64,000 nucleotides of DNA. Source: Betaproteobacteria bacterium (GTDB lineage: Bacteria > Pseudomonadota > Gammaproteobacteria > Burkholderiales > SG8-41). The stretch's first letter is position 1. Every line of letters begins with the position of its first letter. The notes under the pieces were generated by a model. The model was not told where the DNA came from and made no database searches. It worked only from the letters and a program-made list of their open reading frames with translations. This document shows, piece by piece, positions 2,288 through 54,046 of the stretch. The translations under genes and the position numbers were made by a program. The stretch lies in contig JAQGNH010000247.1 in assembly GCA_028291945.1 (NCBI GenBank), forward strand, positions 392 through 64,391. The letters run 5' to 3'.

Positions 2288-3250
2288 CTACTCGACTTGC
2301 AATTTGCGCTCACGCACGATCTTCGCCCAGCGCACCGACTCTTCCTTGATTGCACGCGCAAAAACATCGGGCTCATTGCCGACCGGGACCATCCCGATCT
2401 GCGCGAAACGCGTGCGGATGTCCGGCGCGTTCAGCGCCCTTGCAGTGTCCTGATAAAGCTTGCTGATGATGTTTTTCGGTGTACCCGCAGGCACCATGAA
2501 TCCGAACCAGCCGATGTTCTCGAACCCTGGCAGTGTTTCGGCAGCGGCCGGTACGTCCGGCAGTTGCTGAACGCGCTCTTTGCTCGTCACGGCGAGGGCC
2601 CGAAGTTTTCCCTGCTGCACGAAGCCGATCGCCGCAGCGAGGTTGGGCGTCACCATATTGATCTGACCGCCAACGAGATCGGTAAGCGCGGGGGCTTCAC
2701 CTTTATACGGTACATGCACGACTTCTATTCCGGCGGTGTAAAGAAAGTTTTCCGCGGCCAGGTGCGTTTGCGTTGCTACACCTGCGGATCCGTACGTGTA
2801 GCCTTTCGGCTTCGCTTTGGCGGCTGCTATGAAATCCTTCAGGGTCTTCGCCGGAAAGCTCGGATGCACGACGATCGCCTGCGGTCCGCTTGCAACGTTC
2901 GTCACCGCGACGAGATCTTTCTCGGGATTGAAAGGCATTGTCCTGAAGATGTACGGATTCGCAGCGACGATCGAGCCGGAGGTCATAAAAAGCGTGTATC
3001 CATCGGAGGTCGATTTGGCGGCGATATCGCCGCCGATGTTTCCGCCAGCCCCCGCCCGATTGTCTACGACCACGGTCTGGCCCCAGATTTCCGTGAGCTT
3101 CTGTGCGACGAGGCGCGTCACGATATCGGTCGCGCCGCCGGGCGAGAACGGAACGATCACGCGAACGGGATGCGCTGGGTACGCCTGCGCCGACGCAAAC
3201 TCAGCGCTAATCAACGCGCCGATCAGCAGTAGCCACTTCAACGATTTCAT
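2288..3250 (-). CDS. Bug-family (TctC-like, tripartite tricarboxylate transporter) periplasmic substrate-binding protein
   Basis: Start at MKSLKWLLLIGALISAEFASAQAYPAHPVRVIVPFSPGGATD, with GGAGG 5 nt upstream. Signal peptide plus the canonical Bug N-terminus. The track ORF runs on to 3472, which is a spurious 5' extension. Confidence 0.9.
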   Translation of the reverse strand: MKSLKWLLLIGALISAEFASAQAYPAHPVRVIVPFSPGGATDIVTRLVAQKLTEIWGQTVVVDNRAGAGGNIGGDIAAKSTSDGYTLFMTSGSIVAANPYIFRTMPFNPEKDLVAVTNVASGPQAIVVHPSFPAKTLKDFIAAAKAKPKGYTYGSAGVATQTHLAAENFLYTAGIEVVHVPYKGEAPALTDLVGGQINMVTPNLAAAIGFVQQGKLRALAVTSKERVQQLPDVPAAAETLPGFENIGWFGFMVPAGTPKNIISKLYQDTARALNAPDIRTRFAQIGMVPVGNEPDVFARAIKEESVRWAKIVRERKLQVE

Positions 3251-3341
3251 ACTTCCTCCGGTTTTTATGTATTTGATACCGCGCGGCGTGATCAACATAC
3301 AGCAATCACCCGGCACCATCAACGCGCCCGGGCGGCAACCC

Positions 3342-4718
3342 TTACAATCCGAGCGCGTCCGCAGTGAGCTTCCGCAGCTCGCGCTGCAATCGTGCCCGCA
3401 CTGCACGATACGCAGGCCGCTTGTTAACGTTGGTGATCTCGTATGGATCTTTGTCGAGATCGTAGAGCTCATCCAGCTCGCCGTTGCGACTGCGGTTGAC
3501 CCAATGTATGTACTTATGCCGCTCCGTGCGTACTGACTTGTACGTCATGCCCACGAGCCACGGATACGCGTTCTCGGCCCAGTATTCGAGAAGTATCGAC
3601 TTGCGCCAGCCGCCGCGCTTTCCCGAAAAGAGCGGCAGTAACGAGCGGCCCTGTACGTGTTGCCCGGGCTTGCCACCGGCGAGCTGGATCAGCGTCGGCG
3701 CAATATCCTGGCACAGCACCAGATTTTTCGAGCGCGACCCGGCCTTGATGCGTCTGGGATAGCGCACTGTAAACGGCGCGCGTATCCCTTCTTCATACGC
3801 AAACCGACGCTCGGGTCCCAATCCGTGCTCTCCGAAAAAATAGCCGTTGTCGCCAAGAAAGAAGATGATCGTGTTGTCCAACTCCCCTTTGGCTTCGAGC
3901 GCGTCGAACAACATGCCCACGCCTTCATCGACGGACGCCATCATGGCGGCGCGCAGTCTGATTTCCTCCTGCTCGCCAGCGTGAATCGCGTCCAGGAGTG
4001 CGCGAGACTCTTTGGACTTCTTGAGCTCGAGCGCTTCCGCCCACGCCGGTTTCTGCTTCACGATCTCGGCCTCCGGCAGCATGTTCGGCTTCTTCGGGAA
4101 CACACAGTTCCGGTAGAGGTCCTTATGGCGCTCCGCGACGACATACCCGTCCATCTTGAATGTGCCATCGGCCGCCTGCTCCGCGTCCGGATGAACCGCC
4201 TTGTGTGCAAAAAAGAGTGACCACGGCTTGGCGTGCTTGCGGTTCAAGAACTCGACCGCCATCTCGTTCATGATGTCCGTGATATAGCCCTGCCGCTGCA
4301 CGTAGGTACCGTTCTCGTTCAATCGTGGATCGTTGAGCCGGCCGTGCCCATCGTACGCGACCCAGTAGTCGTAGCCGGGTCGCGGCTTACCGTCATTGCC
4401 CATGTGCCACTTGCCGATGTGCGCCGTTTCATAGCCGAGACGCTGCAGCTCGAGGTGATAGTTGGGAAGCCTGTGACTCGCCTGATCGCGCGCGACGTTA
4501 TCGATGATCCCGTGGCGGCTCGCGTATTGCCCTGTCAGGATCGACGCGCGGTTAGGCGAGCATATCGGCGTCGTGTGAAACGCGCGCTCGAACAGCATGC
4601 CTTCGTTTGCAATGCGGTCGATGTTCGGCGTTTTCATATACGGATGACCGCCCGCGCCGAACTCGTCGTAGCGCAGATCGTCGATGAGAATGACCAGAAT
4701 GTTGGGCTTCGTTGCCAA
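3342..4718 (-). CDS. Sulfatase (S1 formylglycine type); no recognisable signal peptide
   Basis: MATKPNILVILIDDLRYD…TPICSPNRASILTG contains the C-x-P-x-R formylglycine motif. The family core GKWH… and …FLGDNGYFFGEHG are also present. Confidence 0.9.
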   Translation of the reverse strand: MATKPNILVILIDDLRYDEFGAGGHPYMKTPNIDRIANEGMLFERAFHTTPICSPNRASILTGQYASRHGIIDNVARDQASHRLPNYHLELQRLGYETAHIGKWHMGNDGKPRPGYDYWVAYDGHGRLNDPRLNENGTYVQRQGYITDIMNEMAVEFLNRKHAKPWSLFFAHKAVHPDAEQAADGTFKMDGYVVAERHKDLYRNCVFPKKPNMLPEAEIVKQKPAWAEALELKKSKESRALLDAIHAGEQEEIRLRAAMMASVDEGVGMLFDALEAKGELDNTIIFFLGDNGYFFGEHGLGPERRFAYEEGIRAPFTVRYPRRIKAGSRSKNLVLCQDIAPTLIQLAGGKPGQHVQGRSLLPLFSGKRGGWRKSILLEYWAENAYPWLVGMTYKSVRTERHKYIHWVNRSRNGELDELYDLDKDPYEITNVNKRPAYRAVRARLQRELRKLTADALGL

Positions 4719-4806
4719 AGCGTTGCTCCCTTTTGTTTTACATGCGGCGCACGCGCAGTTCGAGCTCGGGTCTCACCACGCTGAAGACTTTGGCCCTGAC
4801 AACGTG

Positions 4807-5166
4807 CTACAAAAGATTCAGGAGAAACGCGAGGCCAAACGCTAGACTCAACGCAGTGGCTACCGCGATCAGAGTCTTCTGCCACTCGCGCCAGGCAAGG
4901 AACTCCAGCATGAGGAGCCGCACGCCGCCGGCCATGTGGGCCGCGAGCAATACTACCAGGCCCACCTCCGCGATTTTGACCAGAGGCTGATCGGTCCAGC
5001 GCAAAAACGATTCGAGGCGCGCTTCACCTTGAAGCGCTTGCGCCAACGCCCAGAAGTGCAGAGGCAGGAAGACCGTGAGGAGTACGCCCGAAACGCGGTG
5101 AACGGCGAACGCCCAGTACGCAGGATGATTGCGGGCGCGAAAGTCGTTACGCACGCATCGCCTCAA
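4807..5166 (-). CDS. Succinate dehydrogenase/fumarate reductase membrane anchor, SdhC (cytochrome b)-like
   Basis: …AFAVHRVSGVLLTVFLPLHFW… (HRxSG motif), three TM helices. Start uncertain: TTG at 5166 overlaps the upstream TGA, and GTG at 5154 is the alternative. The 5' part of the track ORF up to 5259 overlaps the previous gene. Confidence 0.6.
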   Translation of the reverse strand: MRRCVRNDFRARNHPAYWAFAVHRVSGVLLTVFLPLHFWALAQALQGEARLESFLRWTDQPLVKIAEVGLVVLLAAHMAGGVRLLMLEFLAWREWQKTLIAVATALSLAFGLAFLLNLL

Positions 5167-36167: not shown

Positions 36168-37280
36168 TCATGCGGCGAGTCTCATGCAGACTTCCGCGAC
36201 CGTACGCGTTGCGTCCGGCTTGCCCGCAGCTCTCGCCTGTTTCGCCATCGCGAGCAACTTGTCACGCGTGAATTCAGCGAGCAGATCTGCAAGACGCTGC
36301 GGCGTAAGCTCGCTTTGCGGTATGAGCAGCGCGGCGCCGCGCTCTGCGAGGAAGCGCGCGTTTTGCGTCTGATGATCGTCGACTGCTTGCGGAAACGGTA
36401 TCAGGACAGCAGGCACACCCGCGGCTGCCAGCTCGGCAATGGTTGAAGCGCCAGCGCGGCAGATCATCAGGTCGGCCGCAGCGTAGCTTGCCGCCATATC
36501 TTCGATGAACCCAATAATGCTCGCCTCAACGGCTGCCGAAGCGTAGTTCGCGCGCACCGCATCGAGATGAGCGGCGCCCGCCTGGTGTATCACTTCAGGA
36601 CGGACACTCTGTGACAATCGTGCGATCGCTTGCGGAACGACATCGTTCAGCGCTTTCGCACCCTGACTTCCGCCGAGTACGAGCACGCGCAATCGCCCGT
36701 GACGTCCCGCAAAGCGCTGTTCCGGCGGCGCGATCGCTGCGATGTCTGCCCGAACCGGGTTGCCGCTCCACTCGGCCTTGGCCCGCTTGCCGAAAGCCCC
36801 TGGAAAACCGAGGAGCACCTTGTCTGCAACATGACCGAGCACCCGGTTCGTGAGCCCTGCGACTGAATTCTGCTCGTGAATGACCAGCGGCCGATTGAAG
36901 AGACTCGCCATCATGCCGCCGGGGAAAGCAACGTAACCGCCCATACCGAGCACGACGTCCGGACGATGCGCGAAGAGCGCACGCGCGCTCTGCACGAACG
37001 CAATGAGCAGATTGAGCGGCAGCAGCGCAGCACGGACCAGACCTTTGCCGCGCAGGCCGGACATTCGGATCCACGCCATCGTGTAACCCTTAGCCGGCAC
37101 GATGCGGGCCTCCATGCCCGCACGCGAGCCGAGCCATACGACGTTCCAGCCCGCGGCGCGCACGTGCTCTGCTACGGAAAGTGCCGGAAAAATATGGCCA
37201 CCGGTGCCGCCGGCCATGACCATCAGAGTTCGCCGCCCCTGGGCGCTCGGCGTTGGGTCGCGTTGAACAGTATTGATCAT
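36168..37280 (-). CDS. murG: UDP-N-acetylglucosamine--N-acetylmuramyl-(pentapeptide) pyrophosphoryl-undecaprenol GlcNAc transferase
   Basis: …[16 protein letters not shown]…, glycosyltransferase 28 family. Confidence 0.95.
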
Positions 37281-37315
37281 ACTGTCAGGCCCTTCGCGAG
37301 CCTGCCGTTTTGGCT
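37277..37315 (-). other. Orphan duplicate of the ftsW 3' tail, whose TGA overlaps the murG ATG
   Basis: Reads [15 protein letters not shown] against the in-use [14 protein letters not shown] at 37372. 30/35 ungapped nt identity, offset 95 bp. Confidence 0.8.
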
Positions 37316-37371
37316 ACGCCGAAACAGGCAGCCATCAGTTCCAAATTCGCCATGTGCCAACGCTCGCCTAG

Positions 37372-38532
37372 TCATACTGTCAGGCCTTTCGCGAGCTGCC
37401 TGTTTTCCCAATCGACACGCAGAAGTATTGCGAGGGCGGCACACGTTGCCGCGAGGGCGCTGCCGCCGAACGACAGCAGCGGCAGCGTCAGGCCCTTTGT
37501 GGGCAATACGCCCATGTTCACGCCCATATTGATGATCGCCTGCACGCCGATCCACAGGCCGACGCCTTGCGCGACAAGCGATGCGAAATAGCGCTCGAGC
37601 ATGGCCGCGCGGCGCCCTATTGCAAATGCCCGCGCCACGACCCACCCAAACATGAGCACGATCAAAGCGACGCCCACGAAGCCAAGCTCTTCGGCGATGA
37701 CAGCGAGGAGGAAATCCGTGTGCGCCTCCGGAAGGTAAAACAGTTTCTCGACGCTTCCGCCCAGGCCGACACCGAACCATTCTCCACGGCCGAATGCGAT
37801 CAATGCATGCGAGAGCTGATAGCCTTTCCCATACGGATCGGCCCAGGGGTCCATGAAACCGACCACCCGCTGCATGCGATAAGGCGAGATCCAGATCAGC
37901 AGCAGGAAGCCGATGATCAGCATGACGATCAAGCCAGCGAACAGACGCCAGTTCATGCCGCCGAGGAAGAGGATGCCCATCGCAATGACCGTGATGACGG
38001 CGAACGCGCCGAAATCCGGCTCACGCAACAACAGGCCGCCGGTGAGCAGCATCACGAAAAACATCGGCATGAAGCCGCGACGCAGGCTGTGCATGAACGC
38101 GGCCTTGCGTACGGTGTAGTCGGCGGCGTAAAGAACGCAGCACACCTTCATGAGCTCGGAAGGCTGGAAGTTCGCGACATACAGCGAGATCCAGCGCCGA
38201 CTGCCGTTCACTTCGCGTCCGATGCCGGGCACGAGCACGAGCATGAGGAACGCGAGCGCAACGACGAAAAGGTAAGGCGCAGCTTGTTGCCACAGCCGGG
38301 TCGGCACCTGGAACGCGACGACCGCGAACACGAGGGCGATAGCAACAAAAAACGTGTGACGCACGAGATAGTACGTCGGCTGATAGCCCGTGCTGCGCCC
38401 GGCTTCGGCAATAGCGATCGACGAGGAATAGACCATCACCACACCCAGCGCGAGCAGCAGGATCGTGCACCACACGAGAGGGACGTCGTACTCGGCGACC
38501 GACGCGCGCTTCTTGCTCTCGCGGTAATACAT
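37372..38532 (-). CDS. ftsW: Cell division protein FtsW (SEDS family)
   Basis: Start [21 protein letters not shown] at 38532. Polytopic, …[21 protein letters not shown]… The track ORF adds 37 spurious aa overlapping murD. Confidence 0.93.
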
Positions 38533-38540
38533 GGCCTGGC

Positions 38541-39941
38541 TCACGGCAGGCGTCCTTCCTCTGTCGCTGCGAGAGCCTTCACGGCGGCAACAAAGACCTG
38601 AGCGCGGTGCACGTAACTCGTGAACATGTCGTAGCTCGCACACGCGGGAGACAACAGCACGGCATCTCCCGTACGGCTCTCGCTGTAGGCGGCTTGCACC
38701 GCCTCTTCCAACGTCGAAGCGTGCAGCACGCGAACGCCTGAACCGGTCAGCACGTGCTCGATCTGCGGTGCATCGCGCCCGATCAACACCACTGCGCGCG
38801 CATGAGTAGATATTGCTCGGGTGAGAGGCGAAAAGTTCTGCCCTTTGCCGTCTCCCCCGGCGATGAGCACGACGGGTACGGTCATGCCGTTCAGCGCGGC
38901 AACCGTCGCACCGACATTGGTGCCCTTGGAATCATCGTAGAACGTGATGCCGCGCACCTCTGCAACTTTTTCGAGCCGGTGCGGTAAGCCCCGAAAGCGC
39001 CGCAGGCCTTCGAGCATAGTGCTCTCAGGCATTCCGATCGCATCGCAGAGCGCCAGTGCCGCGAGCGCGTTTGCAGCGTTGTGCAAGCCGGCGACCGGCA
39101 GCTCGTCGATGGGCATCAACGTGTCGCCACCGCGGAGGAGCATCGAATGGCCCGAGACGCCCCAGTCGTGATCGTTTGCCGGCGCGTCAAGACCAAAGGT
39201 GGTGGCGTGCTTCCCGGGACGGGCCATGCGCATGCTCCACGCATCCTGTCGGTTCAACACCTGCACACCGGCGCCTGCGAACACGCGTGCTTTCGCATCG
39301 GCGTATTCGTCCATGCCGTCGTATCGATCGAGGTGATCTTCAGTCACGTTGAGCACGGTGGCTGCGTCTGCGCGCAGGCTGGACGTGCTTTCAAGCTGAA
39401 AGCTAGAGAGCTCCAGCACGAATACATCCGGCATCGCTTTGCCGTTTTCGATTTCGGTCAGGGCATCCAGTACCGGCAATCCGATGTTTCCGGCCACAAT
39501 CGTCGCTCGTCCGCTAACGCGCGAAACTTCACCTGCCATTGCGGTCACGGTGCTCTTACCGTTCGAGCCCGTGATCGCAACGACCTGCGGCCTTGCCCTC
39601 GATTGTCGGGCGGCAACATCGTCGAGGGTGCCCGCGAACATCTCGACATCGCCCACGACAGGGACACCGCGTCGAGTCGCTCCCGCTATTGATGCTTCGC
39701 GACGATCGACTCCAGGACTGATTGCGATGACATCAGCGCGCGCGAAATCACGCTCGCTGAAGGGGCCGGTCGAAATCGGCACGTCCGGCGACTCCGTTTC
39801 GAGCGTGCGTTTGTGTGGTGGATGCGCGCGGCTGTCAGCGACCCTAACTCGCGCACCGTGACGCACGAGCCACCGGGTCATCGACAGACCTGTGTCACCG
39901 AGTCCGAGCACCAGCACGTTCCTGTCTTTCCAATCCAGCAT
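38541..39941 (-). CDS. murD: UDP-N-acetylmuramoylalanine--D-glutamate ligase
   Basis: …[12 protein letters not shown]…, …[10 protein letters not shown]… (Mur ligase P-loop). Confidence 0.95.
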
Positions 39942-40002: not shown

Positions 40003-40083
40003 TCACCGCAGCTTCAGCGTCGACAAGCCGATTAGCACCAACATCATCGAAATGATCCAGAAGCGCACGGGCTGGTTTTGGCT
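40003..40083 (-). other. Orphan duplicate of the mraY 3' tail in the mraY-murD spacer
   Basis: Translates to [25 protein letters not shown]. The last 21 aa are identical to those of MraY, which ends at 40163. 11 codons differ and all are synonymous. Offset 160 bp. Confidence 0.85.
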
Positions 40084-40162
40084 CCGGCCGGCCGACACAC
40101 CACGCTCGACCTTAACTTGCTTCGCAAGTTAGCCTTCACCGAAACCAAGTTGTCGTGCACTA

Positions 40163-41248
40163 TCATCTGAGCTTCAGTGTAGAAAGACCTATCAGCACTA
40201 ACATCATTGAGATGATCCAGAAGCGCACGACAACTTGGTTTTCCTTCCATCCTTTGAGCTCATAGTGGTGATGCAGCGGCGCCATTCGGAAAATGCGTTT
40301 GCCCGTGAGCTTGAAGGACGCGACCTGCAGCATCACCGACAAAGTCTCCACGACAAACACGCCACCCATCACCAGCAGCACGATTTCCTGCCTCACGATC
40401 ACGGCCATGGTCCCAAGCGCTGCGCCAAGCGCGAGCGCACCGACGTCACCCATGAAGACTTCCGCTGGATAGGCGTTGAACCATAGGAACGCGAGACCCG
40501 CGCCTGCCAATGCACCGCAGATCACTGCAAGCTCGCTCGCGCCAGGGATATAGGGGAAATTGAGATATTTCGAGAAGACGGCGTGACCGGCGACGTACGC
40601 AAATACGCCGAGCGCGCTGCCGATCATGACGGTCGGCATGATCGCAAGGCCATCGAGCCCATCCGTGAGGTTGACGGCATTGCTCGTGCCGACTATGACG
40701 AAATAGGTCATCACGATGAAACCTATCCAGCCGAGCGGATACGCCACCTGTTTGAAGAAGGGGACGATGAATGCCGTCTGAGCGGGCAGGTTCGTGGAAA
40801 ACGCGATATACCACGCCGCAGTGACGCCGAATACCGACTGCCAGAAGAACTTGGTGCGCGCGGAAAGTCCTTTGGGATTGCGGTGTACGACTTTTCGGTA
40901 ATCGTCGATCCAGCCGATCGCGCCGAAAGCCACTGTCACCCACAGAACGACCCATACGAATCGGTTACTCAGGTCCGCCCACAGTAGCGTGGTCACCACC
41001 ACGGAAACGAGGATCAGTGCGCCACCCATCGTCGGCGTACCGGCTTTCGTGAGGTGGCTCTGGGGACCATCGCTGCGCACGGCCTGCCCTATTTTGTATG
41101 CCGTGAGCTTGCGGATCATCGCCGGGCCGACGACGAATGAAAGCACGAGCGCAGTCAGGCACGCGAGCACTGCGCGCAACGTGATGTAGTTGAACACGTT
41201 GAAAGCGCGGATATCCTTCCCCAACAGCTGCGCGAGCTCTAAGAGCAT
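40163..41248 (-). CDS. mraY: Phospho-N-acetylmuramoyl-pentapeptide transferase
   Basis: …NVFNYITLR…, …[10 protein letters not shown]…, …[12 protein letters not shown]…. Confidence 0.97.
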
Positions 41249-49160: not shown

Positions 49161-49264
49161 CGGTGAACGAACAGAGGGAAACGCAGGTTTCCCTCCGTAA
49201 CCTCGCTCCGCGAGGCGGGCCGGTGAACGAACAGAGGGAAACCCAGGTTTCCCTCCGTAACCTC
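49161..49264. repeat. Two copies of a 44-bp hairpin-containing (REP-like) unit, 60-bp period
   Basis: cggtgaacgaacagagggaaac[g/c]caggtttccctccgtaacctc at 49161-49204 and 49221-49264 (43/44 identical). Each copy has a 9-bp stem, gagggaaac/gtttccctc. Confidence 0.85.

Positions 49265-53091: not shown

Positions 53092-54046
<955 letters not shown>

Follow-up and report, generated by a model that had tools for sequence, protein, structure and literature searches.

A duplicated ftsW tail in a Burkholderiales dcw cluster as the probable relic of a small palindromic insertion unit

We studied a stretch of 64,000 nt from a Betaproteobacteria bacterium of the order Burkholderiales (contig JAQGNH010000247.1; hereafter the window), in which the 3' tail of ftsW occurs twice, 95 bp apart, in front of murG in the division and cell wall (dcw) cluster. 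The two ftsW tails are probably direct repeats flanking a decayed copy of a small palindromic insertion unit. We observed the anatomy of this unit, its recurrence in other genomes, the covariation and polarity of its parts and its decay in the window. Inserts of this family are found repeatedly in the dcw clusters of many uncultured Burkholderiales from soil, and they seem not to have been reported before. A second, larger case lies between mraY and murD of the same window, and the conserved small open reading frame (ORF) found at that site is a more surprising lead than the relic at ftsW.

The duplicated ftsW tail and the ftsW-murG junction

A repeat search gave two copies of the ftsW tail of 35 nt each, identical at 30 of the 35 positions (86%) with a period of 95; all the features of the two junctions described here are on the minus strand. 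Copy A (AAAACAGGCAGCTCGCGAAAGGCCTGACAGTATGA, 37372-37406) is the tail in use and holds the ftsW stop codon and an overlapping ATG (ATGA). Copy B (37277-37311) is an orphan, in frame with its own stop, and its TGA (37279-37277) overlaps the murG ATG (37280-37278), again as ATGA. This duplication, the overlap of the orphan with murG, and the differences between the copies (a synonymous AAA/AAG change and an AGGCAG/GGCAGG shift that keeps the frame) had been pointed out in an earlier note on this DNA, and all of them were confirmed. The 24-nt core CTCGCGAARGGCCTGACAGTATGA had exactly two occurrences in the 64 kb and no matches in 100 shuffles, and the sequence of the 60-nt spacer between the copies occurred only once in the window. 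The junction sequence was identical in four other metagenome contigs of the Joint Genome Institute (JGI), each encoding an identical MurG, so the junction is not an assembly artefact, the possibility that the earlier note had named as fatal to its own finding.

The repeated segment begins at the Trp-Glu-Asn codons of ftsW (TGGGAAAAC, 37402-37410), a GGAAAAY-like motif where it starts in all instances of the ftsW site. Within copy A, a segment that we call T1 (AAACAGGCAGC, 37395-37405) is the 5' arm of a helix with an anti-tail (GCTGCCTGTTT, 37322-37332), which is the perfect reverse complement of T1 and covaries with it across loci. The predicted minimum-free-energy fold of the region contains this helix, with a fold z-score of -2.1. 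Between copy A and the anti-tail lies a variable spacer of 39 nt (37333-37371), homologous to the spacer of a related locus (L081); it probably derives, as a degenerate orphan copy, from the 5' end of murG, judging from another locus (L105), in which this part is clearly homologous to the murG head. Next comes a remnant of a conserved hairpin (TTTCGGCG plus TAGCCAAAAC, 37307-37324), an 18-nt stub (TTTCGGCGTAGCCAAAAC) at the end of the 60-nt spacer. Copy B follows, with an AAGGG motif 9 nt before the murG ATG; AAAGG stands at the equal distance in copy A. A 7-bp inverted repeat, ACAGTAT/ATACTGT, surrounds the murG start codon (37267-37285) and is present in the predicted fold; the matching position after copy A has no inverted repeat of this type.

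From high to low coordinates the gene order is mraY (40163-41248), murD (38541-39941), ftsW (37372-38532) and murG (36168-37280). MurG has 370 aa. The open frame of ftsW reaches 38643; the 386 aa given here for FtsW follow the gene call on an identical contig (L161), on which the Pfam family FTSW_RODA_SPOVE was matched at 3680-4840.

A scan of genomes with MurG and of metagenomes with an FtsW alignment yielded 160 loci (referred to by L numbers). In most of them ftsW and murG overlap or are a few bases apart (L001, L002, L005-L012 and most of L082-L160), including two close relatives at 88-89% FtsW identity that have no duplication (L001 and L002). A duplicated ftsW tail was present in 13 sources: the window, L003, L004, L081, L084, L091, L097, L098, L105, L110, L115, L132 and L152. 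The local alignment score of the duplication was 26-53 in the first ten of these, as against a background of at most 22 in ~70 other loci; the last three bring the total to 13. The FtsW of L081 was 95% identical to that of the window. Because copy B keeps exactly the native ftsW-murG junction, the direct ATGA of the empty relatives, it is plausibly the original tail, as the earlier note had reasonably supposed, and most likely, on the evidence of the junction sequences, the displaced original end of ftsW. That an insertion accompanied by a tail duplication had taken place agreed with the overlap of ftsW and murG in duplication-free relatives; the note had missed the recurrent insert family behind the spacer. 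It had also overlooked the inverted copy of T1, the hairpin remnant, a 32-codon ORF and the mraY-murD case. The note would have taken relatives whose spacer lacks tail homology as a refutation; such relatives do exist, but with other inserts, and at least 13 sources, including the window, share the tail homology. Long ftsW-murG spacers (120-340 nt) with no homology to the ftsW tail were found in L104, L112, L122, L131, L133, L145-L148, L150 and L151, and two of them (L112 and L133) hold reversed hairpin units.

The note had concluded as well that the insertion uncoupled ftsW from murG, which is not established. Since the period of 95 is 2 mod 3 and no stop intervenes, an ORF of 32 codons (37277-37375) opens at the ATG in the first ATGA (37375-37373), overlapping the ftsW stop, and ends at the TGA that overlaps the murG start, so that it bridges both ATGAs. 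A scan found no promoter-like or terminator-like sites in the spacer, and the suggestion that murG is driven from the spacer is therefore without support. The sequence would allow either that coupling is relayed from ftsW to the small ORF and on to murG, or that murG initiates independently. The chance of such an open, in-frame ORF was ~0.13 for the window alone, as estimated from base composition.

Several interpretations of the ftsW site were rejected. The bridging ORF is not a conserved relay, for only in the window and in L115 (42 codons) does it end at the copy B stop: in L081 the bridge is out of frame by 1 nt, and the ORF from the first ATGA in L110 and a TTG-started spacer ORF in L004 run in frame into murG. 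The L115 ORF had no homologue among 5.8 billion proteins. Read-through or ribosome hopping into copy B does not agree with A-to-B periods of 0, 1 or 2 mod 3 in different loci. Finally, a hand count gave ~24 synonymous and 8 non-synonymous differences between the ftsW copies, as would be expected if copy A is constrained while copy B drifts; no special purifying selection on the orphan needs to be invoked.

The hairpin family and its insertion sites

Alignment of the duplicated loci revealed a common plan at the ftsW site: tail A, ~40 variable nt, anti-tail, a conserved hairpin, tail B and murG. When aligned to L081, L115, L098 and L003, the window lacked exactly 33 columns, which correspond to the hairpin core, and its ftsW insert is therefore a decayed copy. 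The 33-nt deletion is a multiple of three and in frame.

The intact hairpin is imperfect and ~51 nt long, with the consensus TTTCGG-YGNAG-GCTAAC-(variable stem-loop)-GTTATGCC-GNAG-CC-AAAA, and its termini TTTCGG…CCAAAA pair with each other. In an alignment of 13 copies over 52 columns, 94% of the cells were paired, with compensatory changes in 10 of the 19 pairs; none of 500 shuffles reached this level of pairing, and slid controls were 27-45% paired. A covariance model built from the 13 copies was run on the window and the 93 closest of the 160 loci (94 sources) and gave 33 matches in 21 of them. Rfam searches of the window region, and of eight loci whose hairpins are intact, returned nothing relevant.

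Three kinds of site carried hairpins: the tails of ftsW and of mraY and, with the hairpin reversed, the murG head. In nearly all instances the hairpin stood between direct repeats of coding sequence (27-100 nt); the few low-scoring exceptions (L098, L132 and L084) are decayed or multi-unit loci. In five loci (L084, L088, L112, L133 and L152) a reversed hairpin lies just inside murG, between two copies of the murG head, of which the downstream one carries its own start. Tandem arrays were found in L091, L097, L133, L152 and L165. The repeated segment has a GGAAAAY-like start at each kind of site (TGG-GAA-AAC in ftsW, AAG-GAA-AAC in mraY and the reverse strand of CAT-ATT-TTC-CC in murG), and the repeat copy on the CCAAAA side begins directly at the hairpin end. 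The repeated segment also extends past the stop codon into the next gene, the variable part being a degenerate orphan copy of the start of that gene, a homology that was clear in L105 and L117.

The anti-tail follows the sequence of T1. Six synonymous T1 haplotypes of the N-R-Q codons were distinguished, and anti-tails matched their cognate T1 at a mean of 12 of 16 positions, compared with 9.7 of 16 for non-cognate pairs. At the mraY site only the inserted unit showed significant complementarity (mean z -3.5), and a helix around the orphan unit or at 40 empty junctions was rejected (z ~0). The anti-tail thus belongs to the added DNA and is not a native feature.

Some other repeats were noted in these loci. 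L152 (c. 2950-3260 and 3380-3436) carries two forward hairpin units and one reversed unit inside murG, and its ftsW tail together with its murG head makes up a perfect 17-bp palindrome (CAGATTGCTCATGCGGG/CCCGCATGAGCAATCTG). The mraY-murD spacers of L106, L092 and L101 (c. 190-450) contain other, unrelated palindromic inserts, e.g., GGATCGAGGATCGAGG…CCTCGATCCTCGATCC; the mraY-murD junction seems to be a hotspot for palindromic inserts. On the upstream side of the dcw cluster in the window, two 44-nt copies with a 60-nt period are 98% identical (49161-49264), and each contains the hairpin GGGAAAC[G/C]CAGGTTTCCC. A weak 34-nt direct repeat, 83 nt apart and 71% identical, is located at 53579-53695.

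The mraY-murD site and its small ORF

In the second case in the window, a 67-nt mraY tail is duplicated 160 nt apart with 81% identity. Copy A, the tail in use (40163-40229), has AT-rich codons in the window, with a GC content at third codon positions (GC3) of 0.58 vs 0.89; copy B, the orphan (40003-40069), encodes the same 21 residues. The T1 arm (AAACCAAGTTGTCGTGCGCT, 40222-40241) lies inside mraY, and the 20-nt anti-tail (AGTGCACGACAACTTGGTTT, 40142-40161) directly after the mraY stop, the two making an inverted repeat of 20 nt that is 95% complementary. The hairpin is intact here, in a long two-branch form (40075-40144) that matched the covariance model with 30.7 bits (E 1.8e-5). A like arrangement was present at mraY-murD in L094, L117, L126/L127 and L149, and one with a variant hairpin in L108, L110, L121 and L160. 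The stop of copy B and the sequence downstream of it match those of empty relatives, and in comparison with native tails from other lineages copy B has fewer differences (5-7 in 57) than copy A has (8-10 in 57).

The two mraY tails of the window differ at 11 of the 19 codons compared, and all of these differences are synonymous. Over nine mraY loci, the 62 codon differences between A and B were 62 synonymous and 0 non-synonymous. The B copies of orthologous inserts also differed only synonymously, both in L094/L117, which share a rearranged junction, and in L108/L110, which share the variant hairpin. Moreover, A and B of one genome have rare residues in common: a Cys in L117 only, and a Ser and an Ile in the window.

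In six of the nine mraY loci the orphan murD start opens an ORF at the mraY stop or next to it; this ORF crosses the hairpin and ends at the native stop of copy B. A protein search with the ORF of L094 retrieved at least 258 clusters. The best 120 of the 258 (P0001-P0120) are 37-79 residues long, nearly all 46-58, and come from metagenome-assembled genomes (MAGs) of Burkholderiales or Betaproteobacteria and from metagenomes, where JGI often mislabels them as MraY. Their alignment displays a variable head, a segment encoded by the hairpin (SAKANL…GRSQN) and a nearly invariant transmembrane tail of 21 residues. On long contigs the ORF adjoins both mraY and murD with a spacing of 0-1 nt, and sometimes two such ORFs are in tandem. 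An ORF of this kind, of ~46-58 codons, was noted in L094, L110, L117, L121, L149, L160 and L165-L169. The window's own ORF is broken (period 160, in-frame TAA), and yet its tails differ only synonymously.

Four explanations were considered for these observations on the mraY tails, and each conflicts with at least one of them: a recent insertion, gene conversion, the horizontal import of copy A, and survivorship among diverged repeats. The simplest reading of the 62:0 pattern would be a translated, functional microprotein, as judged from the codon differences, though no explanation is satisfactory. We tentatively put forward a broader proposal, that the unit may be of an undescribed kind. Such a unit would enter essential genes and in doing so duplicate 30-100 bp over a gene end and the next start, place an inverted copy of the target beside a hairpin and create a small ORF that chains stop to start. 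At mraY-murD that ORF might be a widespread, tail-anchored microprotein of ~50 residues, whose transmembrane segment would be a second copy of the last helix of MraY, under strict purifying selection and co-varying with the MraY copy of the same genome.

Origin of the unit and comparison with known elements

In relatives the intact unit sits at a GGAAAAY-like motif among the final codons of a gene and consists of copy A (in use), a degenerate start of the next gene, an anti-tail of 10-20 nt complementary to the first bases of copy A, a hairpin of ~51 nt, and copy B, which keeps the native junction with the next gene. The outcome is a target segment, a hairpin and a target segment again. As this segment reaches from one gene's end into the start of its neighbour, both essential genes stay whole. 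A DNA-level illegitimate event at short homologies between hairpin ends and target may have produced it: the 3' end of the hairpin (…CCAAAAY) resembles the target GGAAAAY, and its 5' end (TTTCGGYG) resembles TTTCCGGCG in murG and CTCGGTGA(A) in murD, the candidate homologies on the target side thus being GGAAAAY and …TTTCCGG/CTCGGTG. The order segment-hairpin-segment might arise if a template switch copied the target anew, or if two inverted motifs received staggered cuts that were then filled in. Arrays could come from unequal exchange among the repeats, and recombination between them would restore the empty site precisely, which fits the patchy distribution. In the window, the hairpin core has since been lost by the 33-nt in-frame deletion, with the 11-bp T1/anti-tail helix and the 18-nt stub left behind. 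The unit may persist because it is nearly harmless, given that murG could start from the Shine-Dalgarno-like motif and ATGA of copy B; in this genome ribosomes that reach the ftsW stop could also be passed on to the murG start by the 32-codon ORF.

Several observations weigh against the insertion of a palindromic unit as the origin of the two tails. We found no transposase, recombinase or integrase. The flanking repeats of 27-100 nt far exceed any ordinary transposon target duplication. With filters off, the hairpin was confined to the mraY-murD and ftsW-murG junctions in the 64-kb window and in four loci of 12-20 kb; a genome-wide mobile family would go beyond these loci, where hairpin copies were seen only at dcw junctions. 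Hairpin similarity did not follow host similarity significantly (Spearman 0.13), which bears on a vertical versus a horizontal history. No close pair of filled and empty sites was found (the closest was only ~93% over 75 nt), and for this reason we infer the exact inserted sequence and whether it came in one step or several. Furthermore, the anti-tail changed in a compensatory manner between orthologous inserts (GTCCG:CGGAC in L094 and GTTCG:CGAAC in L117), and this change, together with the purifying selection seen in the mraY orphan (62:0), suggests that parts of the unit are functional and not just tolerated.

The unit could instead be a selected cis-regulatory RNA of the dcw operon, a rather unlikely alternative in which the helix and the hairpin in the polycistronic mRNA control processing, stability or the hand-over of ribosomes, and the gene-end copies are kept as parts of that RNA or of the relay ORF. 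The strong covariation of the hairpin, the covariation of the anti-tail with T1, including the compensatory change between L094 and L117, the T1/anti-tail helix in the predicted fold of the window, the mraY-site ORF that adjoins both neighbours at 0-1 nt and has at least 258 protein clusters, and the restriction of the hairpin to dcw in the DNA searched would all agree with such a role. The polarity of the hairpin does not. Its plus strand folds better than the complement whether it is co-oriented with or opposed to transcription; the strong model matches of the reversed copies fall on the strand opposite to transcription, and the five loci with a reversed hairpin keep the same motifs and the same preference for their own strand. 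In addition, the reading frame through the hairpin differs between the ftsW and mraY sites. Own-strand folding in both orientations and the differing frames imply that hairpin conservation is neither at the protein level nor bound to the mRNA strand, and together with the added nature of the anti-tail and the reversed matches they favour a DNA-level element over an mRNA element. The window, moreover, lost the hairpin core at ftsW-murG and kept the genes, its fold z-score was only -2.1, the unit is entirely absent in many close relatives, and at ftsW the relay ORF lacks conservation. An RNA role may apply to the co-oriented hairpin copies.

A miniature integrative element carrying its own replacement gene end, as prophages 21 and e14 do in icd, is an improbable source of the unit. 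These prophages, and SXT in prfC, keep the target gene intact by supplying a second copy of its end and leave the displaced end as an orphan, with mainly synonymous differences between the two; these elements measure tens of kilobases and encode an integrase. Here the free form would be one long palindrome of anti-tail, hairpin and the T1 of copy A, joined to the remainder of copy A. By recombination inside the gene end it would push out the end already present (copy B), and it would pass horizontally among related genomes. In agreement with such a history, the anti-tail matches copy A and not copy B; copy B is native-like, whereas copy A is more diverged from all native tails and, in the window, atypical in codons (GC3 0.58 vs 0.89); the A/B differences are synonymous, as for two functional alleles; the distribution among relatives is patchy; and the T1 of copy A is identical (GGGAAAACAGGCAGC) in hosts whose FtsW proteins are only 74-95% identical. 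However, the inserts described here are of 60-130 nt and have no gene, and A and B share lineage-specific residues (the Cys of L117, the Ser and Ile of the window), unexpected of a travelling copy. At the ftsW site, A and B also share synonymous states within each genome (GCG and GGC in both copies of the window, GCA and GGG in both of L081), which indicates a local origin or gene conversion. In the orthologous inserts of L094/L117 and of L108/L110, the changes that copy B has undergone since insertion are still all synonymous. The analysis detected no integrase, and a circular double-stranded intermediate of 100-170 bp would be very small.

It is highly improbable that the ftsW-murG junction was simply duplicated in tandem or by a replication slip and then drifted, with no element involved, or that the assembly is at fault: direct repeats 95 nt apart are the expected product of a slip, but the spacer is no copy of neighbouring sequence, its stub is common to at least 20 other loci and to the mraY site of the window, and an artefact does not agree with the identical junction in four other metagenome assemblies.

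We compared the preferred insertion unit with known families of small repeats. The closest concept is that of the mycobacterial interspersed repetitive units (MIRU), repeats of 40-100 bp located in operons, often in tandem and with imperfect internal inverted repeats (PMC12548453, PMC3184786). The MIRU ORF overlaps the flanking stop and start (-4 nt spacing), so that the MIRU are thought to be translationally 'transparent' (PMC12548453, PMC3184786; Supply et al. 1997 as described there). They show only tetranucleotide direct repeats at filled sites and ~40-50 copies per genome, in Mycobacterium (PMC12548453, PMC3184786). Both kinds of unit are short and intercistronic within one operon, can stand in tandem, contain imperfect inverted repeats and have an ORF that overlaps or adjoins the stop and start of its neighbours, with ATGA at both ends in the window and 0-1 nt at both ends at the mraY site of relatives. 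The present units differ in their flanking repeats of 27-100 nt of coding sequence, in the inverted target copy, in their occurrence only in the dcw cluster of Burkholderiales MAGs, and in a relay ORF that is conserved at the mraY site and not at the ftsW site.

The bacterial MITEs (miniature inverted-repeat transposable elements; Correia/NEMIS, ERIC/IRU, RUP and RPE) are shorter than 200 bp, have no transposase gene, form a long stem-loop and occur in either orientation (PMC2229807, PMC3184786). They are co-transcribed with their neighbours, sometimes in frame with host ORFs, and are A+T-rich, with target duplications of 2-10 bp (often TA), many dispersed copies and a derivation from known insertion sequence (IS) families (PMC2229807, PMC3184786). 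The units studied here share with them the small size, the lack of a transposase gene, the two orientations, co-transcription and the occasional reading in frame with host ORFs; they likewise have terminal inverted repeats and fold whole as one stem-loop (94% of cells paired). Unlike MITEs, they have flanking repeats of 27-100 nt, not 2-10 bp, and no A+T-richness was found in them. In the 64 kb plus the four 12-20-kb loci, copies lay only at dcw junctions, and no IS was seen. The repetitive extragenic palindromes (REP) and the bacterial interspersed mosaic elements (BIME) are palindromes of 21-65 nt with more than 100 copies, a GTAG head and no target duplication, associated with RAYT transposases (PMC2817692). 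Our units resemble them as imperfect, G+C-rich palindromes at gene ends in operons, with a strand-specific hairpin consistent with recognition of single-stranded DNA. They differ in a copy number that appears very low (two in 64 kb, both in dcw), in their long flanking duplications, and in a variable GNAG, which is GTAG in some copies only. Membership in MIRU, MITE or REP/BIME thus fails in each case on at least one of the defining features tested.

Two further candidates were rejected. An integron attC site does not agree with the motifs, as GGCTAAC/GACTNAC fails RYYYAAC at position 2 and GTTATGC fails GTTRRRY at position 5; GTTAAGC was present only in long hairpin forms. A diversity-generating retroelement was discarded because the differences involve all four bases, and not template adenines, and are all synonymous at the mraY site. 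We found no description of the hairpin-insert family in Rfam 15 or in full-text literature, which is weak evidence, most subscription journals being outside that coverage.

Few bacterial operons are as conserved and as tightly coupled as the dcw cluster, and the insert is tolerated in its essential genes mraY and ftsW/murG across a broad clade. It represents one way to separate overlapping, translationally coupled genes without loss, by duplicating the gene ends and leaving a relay ORF in between. Where metagenome annotations of this clade show orphan gene ends or 'MraY' fragments of 50 residues, these are products of the hairpin unit and not assembly noise. A long target duplication together with an inverted target copy fits no standard transposition product and may indicate a template-switch or staggered-cut mechanism. 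If confirmed, the orphan mraY tail would be a natural example of a microprotein born from the duplication of a gene end.

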